From IMG/VR virus record IMGVR_UViG_3300022217_000169, positions 6,746-70,745 of that record: 64,000 nucleotides of DNA. One strand, written 5' to 3'. The position numbers and the translations under genes were made by a program. Origin of the DNA: a virus. Taxonomy: Duplodnaviria; Caudoviricetes. Below the pieces are notes generated by a model that saw only the letters and a list, made by a program, of their open reading frames with translations, searched no databases and was not told the origin of the DNA. This document shows, in pieces, positions 2,126-40,512 of this stretch; within the stretch, counting starts at the first letter, position 1; each line of letters opens with the position of its first letter.

Positions 2126-2812
2126 TCATTCTAAGATCTCCCCCATTCTATTTAAATAATCTTGATATCTCTTTCCTTTTATTCCACCGCCACTAGCAAC
2201 ATACCGCGGGTGGAAATTTGCAGCAAAAATTCTACTATTATATTTATATGGCGGTAATTTAACTAATTTACTTATAGTTTCATTATCGTTAATATAATTT
2301 TTTATATTTTTAAATACTGAAAATGCAGCAGTTTTACCAAGTAAAATAACTTTTATATCTTTATTAAGAAGAGTTATAAAAGATTTTAAATGTTCAATAC
2401 AATAATCACATTCTGATTCAGTTGGAGTTCTATTAATAAATTTATTTTTTTTAATAGAAACTGGACGACAACCAATTATATTAGCTATTGCATAATTTTT
2501 TAATAAAAGATCTTTTATAACTTCTCTTAATATTTTACCAGATGGTGCTCCAGGATAAAATGGTCTTTTATATAATACTTCTTGTTCTCCCCCGGCTTCA
2601 CCAATAAATAATATATCTATTAAATGTAATGATCCTTTATTAATTATATTATCAATTGAGCATTCAAAAGGCACATAAAATTTATCTAAAAAAGTTTTTA
2701 TATTTATATATAGATCGGGATGAATAAAATCAAAACGTTGTTTAGTTGGGCATCTTTCATTGCATTTATTAAAATCATGCTCGAATACAAATTCACTCAT
2801 TTCATATTCCAA
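2126..2812 (-). CDS. uracil-DNA glycosylase family 4
   Basis: ILFIGEAGGEQE...PF..GAPSGKIL, NIIGCRP...NRTPT..E...C, and C-terminal HP motifs. Confidence 0.85.
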   Translation of the reverse strand: MEYEMSEFVFEHDFNKCNERCPTKQRFDFIHPDLYINIKTFLDKFYVPFECSIDNIINKGSLHLIDILFIGEAGGEQEVLYKRPFYPGAPSGKILREVIKDLLLKNYAIANIIGCRPVSIKKNKFINRTPTESECDYCIEHLKSFITLLNKDIKVILLGKTAAFSVFKNIKNYINDNETISKLVKLPPYKYNSRIFAANFHPRYVASGGGIKGKRYQDYLNRMGEILE

Positions 2813-3000
2813 AATCTATATTTAAATTAATATGTTTCTCATTGCCAGTTTTGTAAAGAGTTATTTGTTTAATAGTGCTATTAGTTTTCTTTTCAAATTC
2901 ATCAAGTAAATTTATTATATCATTTTTCAATTCTTCTTCTAAATCATATATTTTATTAATTGTAAGCTCTTTTACTTTCATTCTAACTCCATATTTATAT

Positions 3001-3130
3001 TATGCACCTACGGATTCGAACCGTAACATGGCCTGGTACTAAGGCCAATCAGCCAAGTCGTTCCATAGCCACGGTGAGCATTCCAAGACAGCTTAGTTTC
3101 CATATCTGCATTTATCTCACTAAGGTGCAT
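3001..3130 (-). ncRNA. tRNA-like structured RNA (~130 nt)
   Basis: Acceptor stem ATGCACC/GGTGCAT, canonical T-arm TACGG-TTCGAAT-CCGTA, D-like stem GTGAG/CTCAC around a long insert, extra arm TGGCCT/AGGCCA; no canonical anticodon arm; no encoded CCA. Confidence 0.7.
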
Positions 3131-3136
3131 AAAGTT

Positions 3137-3565
3137 TTAATTTTCCAATATTTTTTTATTAAATTCCCCAGTTCTATCAATTATTATACCAGTATTGTTT
3201 ATTACTTCACGAGCATTATTATCAAAAATTAAATCACAATCGAGTCCTTTTATATTAGTTATTTCAAGATCTGGTGGAAATCCATTTATTAATAACCATT
3301 TTCTTATAGGCGGAATAGTCTCTGGTTTATATGCTCTCGCAGTAAATATTTTTATTTTTATTTCCTTTTTTAACCAGTACAAAACCCATTTTTTCATTAA
3401 AGGAATTGGATTGCCAATATCACCTATATTCCCCCATCTTTCATAATAAGCTAATGTTCCATCAAGATCAACATAATAAACTAATTGCTTTTCTTTATAA
3501 TCATGGTCTATCAAAGGATTTGCAGGATTTGGATTTCTTGGTTTATCTATTCCTTTTATTTCCAT
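3137..3565 (-). CDS. HAD-family (polynucleotide 3'-) phosphatase
   Basis: VDLDGTLA (DxDxT), IFTARA and terminal IFDNNA motifs, as in Pnkp-type phosphatase domains. Confidence 0.8.
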   Translation of the reverse strand: MEIKGIDKPRNPNPANPLIDHDYKEKQLVYYVDLDGTLAYYERWGNIGDIGNPIPLMKKWVLYWLKKEIKIKIFTARAYKPETIPPIRKWLLINGFPPDLEITNIKGLDCDLIFDNNAREVINNTGIIIDRTGEFNKKILEN

Positions 3566-4134
3566 TTTTTATTCCTATTTATTCCGAAATCTTTTCCTTT
3601 TATTTTTATCATTCTCCCGTCTAGATGATGCCATACAATACCTTCGATATCATTTTGTAAAAAGAAATTTTTTAATCCATCAAAGTCTCTTGGTACATTT
3701 TTTATTTCTTCGCATCCGTGTTTAATTAAAATATGTTTTTCAAATTTTTCTGGATTCTTTTGAATTTTAGGACCACATAATTCATATGTACCATCTATCC
3801 AATCTAATTCGCATGTAAAATGTGGAATAATACTATTATAAGCTTCCATATGATATTTATCTGAGGATCTTACTGGCCTCCATCCTTCCTGTTTCCCTGT
3901 AACTGGATTTATTTCTGTTGCTGGTATAAAATCTCCTGGTGGAGTTTTATCTTTTTTAACTGTATATCTTTTAAAAAATCTACCATTTTTTATCAAACAA
4001 CATGTTCCATCAAATTTTCTTGTTGCAATACCCTCTCCATCTATTACCCATTTAGCTTCTTTATTTATTTGATTAATTATAGGTTTTTCTTTTTTTGTAT
4101 AATCTCTTTTAAATAATGATGGTATCTTTTTCAT
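3556..4134 (-). CDS. RLIG1/DUF5565-like ATP-dependent RNA ligase
   Basis: Motif I ATRKFDGTCC, YELCGPKIQKNP, IEGIVW and KIKGKDF nucleotidyltransferase-type motifs. Confidence 0.75.
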   Translation of the reverse strand: MKKIPSLFKRDYTKKEKPIINQINKEAKWVIDGEGIATRKFDGTCCLIKNGRFFKRYTVKKDKTPPGDFIPATEINPVTGKQEGWRPVRSSDKYHMEAYNSIIPHFTCELDWIDGTYELCGPKIQKNPEKFEKHILIKHGCEEIKNVPRDFDGLKNFFLQNDIEGIVWHHLDGRMIKIKGKDFGINRNKKWK

Positions 4135-4147
4135 ATTCTTCTCCTGT

Positions 4148-4399
4148 TTATATTATTAATGCTCCACTTATTAATTTTATTTTTTCTTCAGGCAATGTTA
4201 CAAATTGTGATAAGCAAAAACCGCAGAAAAATTCTATTCCTTCATAAAATTCATGATATGGTGTATACTCATATATAGCAATAGTTTCATTTATTTTATT
4301 ACATACTGGACATTTAAATGAAATTGGTAACTTTTTGTTACCTATCGAGTTACTTATCCAATAAAAATCAAAAACAGTTTTCTTGTGGTTTTTTTTCAA
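4148..4399 (-). CDS. small Zn-ribbon protein
   Basis: CPVC...CGFC. Confidence 0.55.
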   Translation of the reverse strand: MKKNHKKTVFDFYWISNSIGNKKLPISFKCPVCNKINETIAIYEYTPYHEFYEGIEFFCGFCLSQFVTLPEEKIKLISGALII

Positions 4400-4613
4400 T
4401 TATTACTGGTACTCCTACTTCACATTCTTTTATTACATCATAACTTGCAGCCATAGACAAACCATCTCTTGTATCTATATCGTAACTATCATGTTTTATG
4501 CCTTTTGCTTCAAAATACTTTTTAGTTGTAAAACAATTACAACACCCTTTTTTATAAAAAATTATCCATTCTTTATTTTTATCAAAACTTGCTAAATTTA
4601 TTAAATCATCCAT
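4368..4613 (-). CDS. glutaredoxin/NrdH-like protein
   Basis: FYKKGCCNC redox-type motif, later VPVI. Confidence 0.65.
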   Translation of the reverse strand: MDDLINLASFDKNKEWIIFYKKGCCNCFTTKKYFEAKGIKHDSYDIDTRDGLSMAASYDVIKECEVGVPVIIEKKPQENCF

Positions 4614-6424: not shown

Positions 6425-6493
6425 TTAAAAAAGGCGAAGATTATCATTTCCAATCCCCGCCTTTGCCATGAAAAGAGGTGTATAAGATTATAT
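6425..6493 (-). ncRNA. orphan promoter-seed-terminator small RNA
   Basis: Behind TTGATA-17-TATACT; contains ACACCUCUUUUC, then stem AAAGGCGGGGAU/AUCUUCGCCUUU and a U-run. Confidence 0.65.
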
Positions 6494-6499
6494 ACTAAT

Positions 6500-6528
6500 A
6501 GTATATCATATTTTTAAATTTATATCAA
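6500..6528 (-). promoter_or_regulatory. sigma70 promoter
   Basis: TTGATA (6528-6523), 17-nt spacer, extended TG-n-TATACT (6505-6500). Confidence 0.75.
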
Positions 6529-6693: not shown

Positions 6694-7590
6694 TTAACAT
6701 AAAATTTGTGGAAAATCAAACCTATTTTCAAGATTACTATGTTCTGGCATCTCTTTGCAATATTTGGATACAGGACAATAATTTTCACATTTTCTACCGC
6801 CCCAAGTTTCTTTATTATTACACAATGGCGACCACATTAATGCTATTGCTGTTCTCAGGGTTTTAGCTTTTTTATTGAAATAATCTAAAACATATTTTCT
6901 ATCTAAAATTGGTATATCAATTACTACAATATTTTTATCTATTCCATACGTGGCGGCTGCTTTCAATCCACCATCTCTTACTATTATTTCAATTTTAATC
7001 TTTTTTACTGGACGACCACTATCTTCAAGCCATATAGCATATCGATTAGTTTGTAATATCCATTCCCACATATCAACCGCGGATTGATCTTGGTTCCATA
7101 CAGTTACTTGTTTTATATCTCCTTTTTTATATCCTCTACCAGATTTTTTATATCTTTCTCCCAATGGATCACTTATTTTTATGCTTACTAATCCTAAAGC
7201 TTTTTTAACTTTATAAGATCCACTATTTTTATAATCCCACAAAGTAAAGTTTTTTGGACTATAATAATCAGCAATTCCACTTTGAATTCTATTAGCAAAA
7301 GAAATCTCACTAGTTCCTTCTGTATCGTTATCTTCCAATGATTTATGCACTTTATTCCCAAGTAATATCCATGCTAATTTTTGGATATCCTCATAGTAAT
7401 CTTTAAATATTTTTAATAAAGTATATCTAGTTCCGGTTATTAATTGTGTTGTACTTGGTAAACCAGTCCACGGTCTTTGTTTTGAAAGTATTGATAAAGT
7501 AGGTAATGAAACACAATGATTTTTACAATTTTCCATACAGTCTTTAAATAAAACTTCTTCTCCGTTAGTGCAAATAAATCCTACTTGCAT
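6694..7590 (-). CDS. Cas4-like PD-(D/E)XK nuclease
   Basis: Cys cluster CMENCKNHC at the N-terminus and CNN...C..YCPVSKYC at the C-terminus; SGIADYY...WDYKNSG catalytic motif. Confidence 0.75.
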   Translation of the reverse strand: MQVGFICTNGEEVLFKDCMENCKNHCVSLPTLSILSKQRPWTGLPSTTQLITGTRYTLLKIFKDYYEDIQKLAWILLGNKVHKSLEDNDTEGTSEISFANRIQSGIADYYSPKNFTLWDYKNSGSYKVKKALGLVSIKISDPLGERYKKSGRGYKKGDIKQVTVWNQDQSAVDMWEWILQTNRYAIWLEDSGRPVKKIKIEIIVRDGGLKAAATYGIDKNIVVIDIPILDRKYVLDYFNKKAKTLRTAIALMWSPLCNNKETWGGRKCENYCPVSKYCKEMPEHSNLENRFDFPQILC

Positions 7591-40396: not shown

Positions 40397-40420
40397 ATTA
40401 ATAAGTTTTATTATTAAGTT

Positions 40421-40487
40421 TGAGGCCATTAGTTCAAAAAGGAGAACCGCTTTAAGTAAGCAGCGGTTCAAATTCGTTATGGCCTCA
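40421..40487 (+). ncRNA. minimal tRNA-like element
   Basis: Acceptor GAGGCCAT/ATGGCCTC, D-arm GTTC-AAAAAGGA-GAAC, T-arm AGCGG-TTCAAAT-TCGTT; anticodon arm reduced to GCTT-TAAGT-AAGC. Confidence 0.65.
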
Positions 40488-40512
40488 AATATATATTTGG
40501 AAAGATGATTAA

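Follow-up and report, generated by a model that had tools for sequence, protein, structure and literature searches.

A tRNA-shaped RNA gene beside an RNA ligase and a phosphatase-like gene in a phage genome

Stable phage RNAs that have the shape of tRNA without being tRNAs, the species 1 and species 2 RNAs of T4, have been known for about fifty years, and to our knowledge the function of neither is known. Here we describe a tRNA-shaped RNA gene of about 130 nt, located at 3001-3131 on the minus strand of a 64,000-nt stretch of viral DNA, called the window from here on. The window is positions 6,746 to 70,745 of the IMG/VR virus record IMGVR_UViG_3300022217_000169; it has a GC content of 26.7%, and the whole record is 70.7 kb long and estimated to be ~73% complete. 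Directly before the RNA come genes for an RNA ligase and a phosphatase-like protein, and a first-pass annotation of the sequence took the three to be one RNA-repair module. We find that the RNA is real and that the module is not conserved.

Two small stable RNAs are annotated where the tRNA cluster of T4 ends. Species 1 (rnaC), a stable RNA of 139 nt, lies at 70908-71046 of NC_000866 (L234:2909-3047). In its fold, an acceptor stem is joined by a long arm, a hairpin of 10 bp and a T arm with GGUUCGAAUCC. The acceptor occupies seven positions, in which five pairs flank two conserved U-U mismatches, and one hairpin loop, GCGUCAAC, is invariant. The covariance model that we use for this RNA (R2) was built from five Tevenvirinae sequences, T4 and four diverged copies (L234-L238), among which 19 of the 46 predicted pairs show compensatory changes. 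The RNA is conserved in 748 records. Rfam gives no match for this tRNA-like element, and one GenBank record (H33) labels the region tRNA-Lys.

tRNA-like structures also serve as processing elements, as in the tRNA punctuation model of mitochondrial transcripts and in mascRNA. The t-elements of plant mitochondria are tRNA-like and define mRNA ends (PMC1920247). The YrlA RNA of M. smegmatis, whose acceptor stem is 7 bp long, is a substrate of RNase P and receives CCA, a stem of this length being described as a major RNase P determinant (PMC4201824). tRNAs with 8/4 or 9/3 acceptor/T branches are reported for bacteria and apparently for their phages (PMC5389517). As to the neighbouring genes, the T4 proteins Rnl1 and Pnkp repair tRNA cut by the anticodon nuclease PrrC, and the sealing of 5′-P/3′-OH RNA ends has been shown for several bacterial and viral homologues of the RLIG1 family (PMC11494293). 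RLIG1 homologues join tRNA halves in vitro, and the plasmid list of that study apparently includes one from a phage (PMC11494293).

The RNA at 3001-3131

The window RNA is numbered here from its 5′-end (nt 1 = 3131, minus strand) and spans 131 nt with an 8-bp terminal stem. In both the minimum-energy fold (-43.5 kcal/mol, z = -2.8) and the pairing probabilities it forms four helices around one junction. The acceptor stem (nt 1-8 with 124-131) consists of a 5′ strand, UAUGCACC (3124-3131), paired with a 3′ strand, GGUGCAUA (3001-3008). All eight pairs are Watson-Crick, with probabilities of 0.66-1.0. The 3′ strand is followed by AUAUAAAU, and CCA is not encoded. The T arm, UACGG-UUCGAAU-CCGUA (nt 107-123; 3009-3025), has the equivalent of the G53-C61 pair and stacks directly onto the acceptor stem.

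Between these lie two arms of other than tRNA type. In the D-like arm (47 nt; 3074-3120; pairing probability >=0.99), a 5-bp stem GUGAG/CUCAC (nt 12-16 with 54-58) encloses exactly 37 nt, within which there is a small internal hairpin and, at the 3′ side, a UUGGAAUG stretch at the place of tRNA G18-G19. The usual 17-nt anticodon arm is replaced by an irregular arm of 47 nt (nt 59-105; 3027-3073), seen in the minimum-energy fold and tipped by GGCU-GAUU-GGCC. Almost all pairs of the four helices have probabilities of at least 0.95; the weaker ones are the closing pairs U1-A131 (0.66) and U107-A123 (0.60) and the innermost pair of the 59-105 stem (0.79). The perfect acceptor stem, the T arm and the insert of about 37 nt at the D-loop position had all been described in the first-pass annotation, and all three hold. 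So does the layout: on the minus strand the two genes overlap, by 10 nt, and the RNA begins 5-6 nt past the second stop codon, against the 6 nt first given. Of the two non-canonical arms said there to stand in place of the anticodon arm, the replacement itself is borne out, but a constrained fold with two hairpins in that region (-38.7 kcal/mol) lies 4.8 kcal/mol above the minimum, which has one long arm. One of those hairpins has the loop UAGUACC, and its pairing probability in the ensemble is ~0.

Is such a shape expected by chance? With a strict tRNA frame, requiring a 5-bp T stem, a TTCRANN loop and seven Watson-Crick acceptor pairs (>=4 G/C) in register, the window has a single instance and composition-preserving shuffles have none (0/600). 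A loose frame that allows G-U pairs and AT-only stems is found in 13 of 300 shuffles. Since the strict frame is unique in the window and absent from all 600 shuffles, the tRNA-shaped RNA is real, beyond chance. The element is also the strongest GC island of the window (47-50% GC against 26.7%), and GGTTCGAATCC is present only once in the window.

The window RNA is nevertheless not an ordinary tRNA. One tRNA feature is there: seven acceptor pairs stack on a T stem of 5 bp, and the T loop is of the UUCRANY type. A D arm, with its stem of 3-4 bp and loop of 7-11 nt, is lacking, the stem here being 5 bp around 37 nt, and so is a 5-bp/7-nt anticodon arm with U33 and a purine at 37 (R37); UAGUACC, the sole candidate for a 7-nt loop, has A33 and C37. 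Lacking such an anticodon arm, the RNA is predicted to be unable to decode. ARAGORN at its default score, with or without the intron mode, calls no gene here. If forced, it gives a poor 'tRNA-Tyr(gta)' at the 47-nt arm (threshold <=80%) or a 'tRNA-Phe(gaa)' that contains an intron of 40 nt and is poor in both D arm and anticodon stem (threshold <=70%), and the models forced at thresholds of 60-80% disagree with one another. None of 4227 Rfam models, among them tRNA (RF00005), tmRNA and Y RNA, matches the 151 nt searched at E <=10, and none reaches its gathering score over the window. The default ARAGORN results and the silence of Rfam rule out an ordinary or an intron-bearing tRNA, in keeping with the tRNA mimic of the first-pass annotation, but the likeness to YrlA or tRNA that it proposed to seek in Rfam did not appear with any of the 4227 models. 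tmRNA is excluded by Rfam and by ARAGORN, including its -m option at the 70% threshold.

Two readings that involve no RNA were also considered. Neither the 40-aa open reading frame (ORF) at 3008-3130 nor any plus-strand ORF over the element has a ribosome-binding site, and the coding interpretation was dropped because the inverted repeats and the T loop are better explained by an RNA. A remnant of attP or another integration site is unlikely, both acceptor strands being present and no tyrosine integrase having been found in the record.

Comparison with T4 species 1 RNA and other tRNA-like RNAs

In architecture, the closest analogue of the window RNA appears to be T4 species 1. Both RNAs are phage-encoded, 130-140 nt long, not recognised as tRNA and without an encoded CCA. 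In both, the two ends form an acceptor-type stem of 7 bp that stacks on a GGUUCGAAUCC T arm, and two larger arms take the place of the D and anticodon arms. They share no sequence homology beyond the T arm, however. The acceptor of the T4 RNA carries two U-U mismatches whereas that of the window RNA is perfect, and the T4 RNA sits at the end of a tRNA gene cluster whereas the window RNA is a singleton in a protein-coding operon. R2 finds no match in the window with default filters. With the filters off and the search confined to 351 nt, it scores 11.8 bits, carried by the T arm and reached via a different 'acceptor'. Membership of the rnaC family is thereby ruled out, and the likeness is one of analogy.

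The acceptor stem of the window RNA is formed by the two ends of the structured element, unlike the closed stem-loop of YrlA, and the ends of the YrlA RNA are differently positioned. The two are alike in being non-decoding and in having a tRNA-like T arm and a D-like arm, and some YrlA RNAs lie near RNA-repair genes (PMC4201824). YrlA, however, is found within 4 kb of a Ro60/TROVE gene on the same strand, bears GNCGAAN0-1G near its 5′-end and has an acceptor-like stem-loop that is closed (PMC4201824). The motif is absent from the window RNA. The 70.7-kb record, which fully covers the 4-kb neighbourhood of the RNA, has no match to TROVE/Ro60 (PF05731), so that the lack of a Ro60 gene reported at first pass holds for the record as a whole. 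A YrlA or other Y RNA is ruled out, since the Ro60 gene, an Rfam match and the GNCGAA motif are all lacking and the topology differs, and the comparison once proposed fails on every feature tested.

The processing elements resemble the window RNA in presenting an acceptor/T-arm minihelix within a longer transcript, between coding regions, that is able in principle to direct cuts by RNase P and RNase Z. They are eukaryotic or organellar and were shown by end mapping, whereas cleavage of the window RNA is predicted. Moreover, the window RNA has two large extra arms that a pure processing signal does not need. The 8/4-type tRNAs are comparable in that the window acceptor also allows a reading of 8 bp, with a T stem of 4-5 bp. 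They are ~90 nt long, however, with normal D and anticodon arms and a readable anticodon; the window RNA has none of these arms.

Relatives of the RNA itself did not emerge from searches of large collections. There is no blastn match among 50,697 phage records. Three words of 20-22 nt, one or two per collection, were looked up for exact matches in IMG/VR, 185,579 species genomes (GTDB) and JGI metagenomes without any being found, and a motif pattern based on the repeated TATGGAA found no relatives. An 18-base pattern has 8 genome matches, about the chance level by our estimate, none of which was confirmed by an RNA model. An architecture pattern (GCACC, 95-125 nt, T loop, GGTGC) has 65 matches in IMG/VR, 47 of them normal tRNAs with a chance upstream word; the other 18 are not called by ARAGORN, are GC-rich and, judged by eye, differ from the window RNA. 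A covariance model made from the single sequence of the window RNA (R1) was run against 84 ligase loci, 80 phosphatase loci and T4, and recovered only the window RNA itself; a full-length match in one related phage (L008, 11.5 bits) is similar to it in the T arm only.

The ligase-phosphatase pair and its linkage to the RNA

The ligase (192 aa; 3556-4134, minus strand) is a clear member of the RLIG1/C12orf29 family, a minimal phage form of the RLIG1/DUF5565-type 5′-3′ RNA ligases. It matches Pfam PF17720 at E 4.9e-12 (45.8 bits against a gathering cut-off of 25) and the full length of the PHROG profile phrog_14301, 'RNA ligase', at E 1.9e-68. A search for homologues returned 3090. The adenylylation lysine, K40, is located in an RKFDGT motif, and K40, D42 and G43 (KxDG) are invariant across 21 aligned sequences. 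A profile of the ligase matches the crystal structure of Yasminevirus RLIG1 (PDB 9C6L, E 9.4e-22), aligning with its PTAKTDGTCC segment, in which the catalytic lysine is K73; a K73M mutant of that enzyme has been described (PMC11494293). The RLIG1-like assignment made at first pass is therefore upheld by Pfam, PHROG and the structure profile, and the protein is predicted to have sealing activity.

The neighbouring protein (142 aa; 3137-3565, minus strand) is a capless HAD-fold phosphatase-like protein. The alignment has the HAD motifs DxDxT (D33, D35, T37), T75, K106 and D115. No Pfam or NCBIfam model matches. In PHROG the protein is matched by phrog_415, 'polynucleotide kinase' (E 7.5e-4), and by phrog_1238 (E 3.1e-7), and its profile reaches the capless HAD protein PDB 1xpj (E 0.003). 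With an AlphaFold model (pLDDT 88), the best Foldseek matches are all HAD proteins and are weak (E ~1e-2, TM 0.45-0.57): 2obb, 1xpj, KDN-9-P phosphatase, GmhB, the phage protein AfhF (9iqw) and the T4 Pnkp phosphatase (5uj0), the sugar-phosphate phosphatases ranking level with the last. The label 'HAD phosphatase' given at first pass is right, as the alignment, the model and the structural matches agree on a HAD fold and DxDxT is present; to call the protein a polynucleotide phosphatase would be a guess. The nucleophile D33 (codon 3467-3469) is present in the window protein, and in several close homologues, including the nearest (P0122, 79% identical), it is Asn or Gly. Some members of this small HAD clade may for that reason not be active phosphatases.

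The pair invites comparison with the T4 repair system, in that a phage ligase predicted to join 5′-P/3′-OH ends lies beside a protein whose fold resembles that of Pnkp (5uj0). To this extent the analogy drawn in the first-pass annotation stands. It falls short on two counts: the window has no fused kinase domain and the record has no match to AAA_33 (PF13671), the only kinase family searched for in a record that is ~73% complete, and the nucleophile Asp of the HAD protein is not kept in close homologues. The ligase itself is RLIG1-type, not Rnl1. The two proteins could handle 3′-P/5′-P or plain nicked ends; they could not, without a kinase from the host or from the unsequenced part of the phage, handle the 5′-OH ends left by classical anticodon nucleases.

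The minus strand carries nearly all ORFs from at least 7590 down to 1. The ligase ORF, which overlaps the phosphatase ORF by 10 nt, has a glutaredoxin-like ORF (4368-4613) on its other side. The phosphatase stop codon is at 3137-3139, and the helix of the window RNA starts at 3131 or 3130, depending on whether its 8-bp or 7-bp version is taken. A small 59-aa ORF (2802-2981, minus strand) follows 20 nt downstream of the RNA, with its own GGAG ribosome-binding site and ATG. Beyond it are a family-4-type uracil-DNA glycosylase (UDG; 2126-2812) and a sigma factor (377-1339). No promoter-like site was found on the minus strand within ~250 nt upstream of the RNA, and no terminator was found after it.

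Does the RNA travel with the two genes? The linkage set comprised four related phages, L004, L006, L008 (the contig also listed as L075 and L154) and L076 (also L156); it left out the contigs that encode the phosphatase homologues P0126, P0129 and P0124 (72-77% identity). Identities to the window proteins are, for ligase and phosphatase respectively, 78 and 79% in L004, 72 and 61% in L006, 64 and 70% in L008, and 62 and 63% in L076. All four keep the order ligase, phosphatase, small ORF(s), UDG, except that L008 has no small ORF, and the sigma factor follows in the same order in the three loci that extend that far. The gene pair is thus kept in five phages of this clade. At this site the window RNA is missing from all four relatives. 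The phosphatase stop and the following ORF are just 3 nt apart in L004, and the other three likewise have no gap after the phosphatase for an RNA. The ORF following in L004, of 68 aa, is the homologue of the 59-aa ORF (blastp 49% identity, E 2e-13), which starts ~9 residues later. As the window phage and L004 are the closest pair and L004 has no room for the RNA, its gain in the window lineage is the most parsimonious history.

Linkage is no better in wider samples. A phosphatase gene accompanies the ligase in five of 84 ligase loci, which represent only three contigs, all of this clade. tRNA genes occur within 3 kb of the ligase at six of the 84 loci, adjacent in none, and within 3 kb of the phosphatase at five of 80 loci. 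A general linkage between ligase and tRNA is not seen in the 84-locus sample at that distance. The first-pass annotation, which had proposed a three-part anti-ribotoxin module, itself named lack of linkage in relatives as what would tell against it, and the RNA is unlinked to the gene pair in all four. Since the adjacency is not conserved, the locus should not be annotated as a three-part RNA-repair system.

In two unrelated phages (L171:2501-2905 and L203:899-1279), a HAD homologue is followed within 12-30 nt by an ordinary tRNA array; two loci of 80 are too few for an association.

Origin of the RNA and its possible uses

On balance we lean towards the view that 3001-3131 is a genuine tRNA-like RNA gene whose product is processed and which shares no descent with its neighbours. 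It would have come as a lineage-specific insertion of ~150 bp that separated the phosphatase gene from the small ORF after it in an early operon, replacing the first few codons of that ORF and bringing or creating a new ribosome-binding site. The RNA is probably co-transcribed with the ligase and phosphatase genes, because it has neither a promoter nor a terminator of its own and the next ribosome-binding site is so close downstream. Bacterial RNase P, for which a stacked acceptor/T helix (12-13 bp in this RNA) is the determinant, would cut at its 5′ edge, and a 3′ nuclease would cut at the opposite edge. The outcome would be the release of a stable ~130-nt RNA and a split of the operon transcript at that place. 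The position beside the ligase-phosphatase pair would then be an accident of insertion, not a conserved partnership. That the GC-rich helices are intact in an AT-rich genome speaks for maintenance or recent arrival.

Several points weigh against this view. Cleavage by RNase P rests on general rules, and the processing and stability of the RNA are predicted from its sequence. In the 7/5 register, 3 nt separate the acceptor from the D-like stem, and a variable region of only 1-4 nt is left, so that a true L-shape is not assured. The RNA is represented by a single sequence, so none of its helices has the support of covariation. Finally, a singleton without relatives could equally be a decaying acquisition.

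The last point leads to the alternative of a neutral or decaying passenger, a tRNA or tRNA-like remnant left by illegitimate recombination and tolerated between cistrons. Its singleton nature, with neither word nor blastn matches, and its non-canonical middle fit such a remnant. Yet the four helices, GC-rich in a genome of 27% GC, are without exception intact, the acceptor has eight of eight Watson-Crick pairs, the two odd arms are expansions and not erosions, and a decayed canonical tRNA should have kept some score with the Rfam tRNA model, which is silent even at E <=10 on the 151 nt. We regard a passenger as rather unlikely. A different possibility is that the RNA is a decoy or sponge, using its acceptor/T-arm face to bind host defence nucleases directed at tRNA, or other proteins that bind tRNA, while the ligase reseals the cut tRNAs. 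Phage tRNAs have been reported to counter tRNA-targeting defences (PMC10264068, PMC11555353, PMC13096335), and the joining of tRNA halves by RLIG1 homologues in vitro (PMC11494293) would suit the second half of the scheme. ARAGORN finds no ordinary tRNA in the whole 70.7-kb record, which is also in favour; the window RNA is hence not part of a decoding set. Against a decoy, no loop copies a known target anticodon loop (UAGUACC has the wrong residues at 33 and 37, in a hairpin of probability ~0), the RNA is absent from four ligase-bearing relatives, and nothing ties it to any particular defence system. A decoy acting in this manner we hold to be unlikely.

That the RNA serves the ligase and phosphatase as their own substrate, scaffold or guide, as in the three-part module, gains from its place 5-6 nt past the phosphatase stop on the same strand and from the conservation of the gene pair in the five phages. 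This reading is nonetheless very improbable, given that none of the four pair-bearing relatives has the RNA, that tRNAs are near so few ligase (6/84, none adjacent) and phosphatase (5/80) loci, that R1 is silent in both sets of loci, that the record has no AAA_33 kinase or Ro60 gene, and that several close homologues, the nearest included, have Asn or Gly in place of D33 of the HAD protein. We give hardly any credence to an unusual decoding tRNA whose extra segments are tolerated or are removed, for example by cut-and-reseal splicing with the neighbouring ligase. An RNA ligase gene does adjoin, and ARAGORN can be forced to a 'tRNA-Phe(gaa)' with a 40-nt intron at thresholds <=70%, but that model, poor in its D arm and anticodon stem, passes only at 60-70% of the normal score. 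Neither a splicing endonuclease nor a group I core is present, the Rfam tRNA models are silent, and the relatives manage without the RNA.

Returning to a real and processed RNA gene, what might such an RNA be for? It is conceivable, and in our estimate quite unlikely, that it is a functional non-decoding tRNA mimic, released by RNase P, that acts as a decoy for tRNA-cleaving defence or as a bait holding the ligase at tRNA-shaped substrates. If that were true, an anti-defence role would for the first time be assigned to a tRNA-like RNA of a phage, which would also hint at what T4 species 1 RNA does. The window RNA is a second, unrelated example of the T4 species 1 ground plan, with canonical acceptor and T arms and a swollen middle, in this case within an operon, beside genes for RNA-end processing, in a phage whose record lacks ordinary tRNAs. 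If its processing and stability are borne out, such RNAs would seem to arise repeatedly and to have a use, and this one, small and clean, could serve as a substrate in studies of RNase P, the CCA-adding enzyme, modification enzymes and tRNA-targeting defences. The practical lesson is a negative one: the adjacency to the ligase-phosphatase pair does not justify annotating this locus as a module.

A few other elements came to light. A second tRNA-like element of the first-pass annotation, at 40418-40492 on the plus strand of the window, folds into a very stable terminal stem of 12 bp around an internal hairpin (z = -6.8). It lacks a UUCRANY T loop and does not match the model of the window RNA, and is therefore unrelated to the RNA at 3001-3131.

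Two related phages (IMG/VR 3300033388_005916 and 3300022217_000160) share a conserved intergenic element of ~170 nt (L008:2436-2612 and L247:1362-1532), to which the R1 match in L008 had led. It comes directly after a 303-aa gene, the positional counterpart of the exonuclease-like gene of the window (6694-7590). By eye the two copies are ~85% identical, compared with a protein identity of 60-70% between these phages and the window. At its end is a hairpin of T-arm type, GCGG-TTCGAAT-CCGC, whose loop reads TTCAAAT in the second phage, and a run rich in U comes next. The element may be either a terminator with the look of a T arm or a degenerate tRNA-like RNA. A short ORF over it varies in length (43 and 23 codons), and at the syntenic place in the window there is a different small RNA unit (6425-6528).

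Long tRNA frames that ARAGORN does not call, each with a perfect 7-bp acceptor and a T arm, were seen on the plus strand at L091:1761-1874 (114 nt) and L171:4511-4631 (121 nt). One looks like a class II tRNA, its D arm being canonical and its extra arm very long, and lies 1.1 kb upstream of an RLIG1 ligase; the other lies inside a phage tRNA array, downstream of a phosphatase homologue. More generally, tRNA-framed elements of 110-150 nt that ARAGORN does not call occur sporadically in IMG/VR phages. Those of 125-150 nt (L035, L041, L050, L024, L038 and others) have the acceptor and T arms of tRNA, sometimes a canonical D arm, and a greatly expanded middle. These scattered elements may be a neglected class of phage tRNA-like RNAs or intron-bearing tRNAs.

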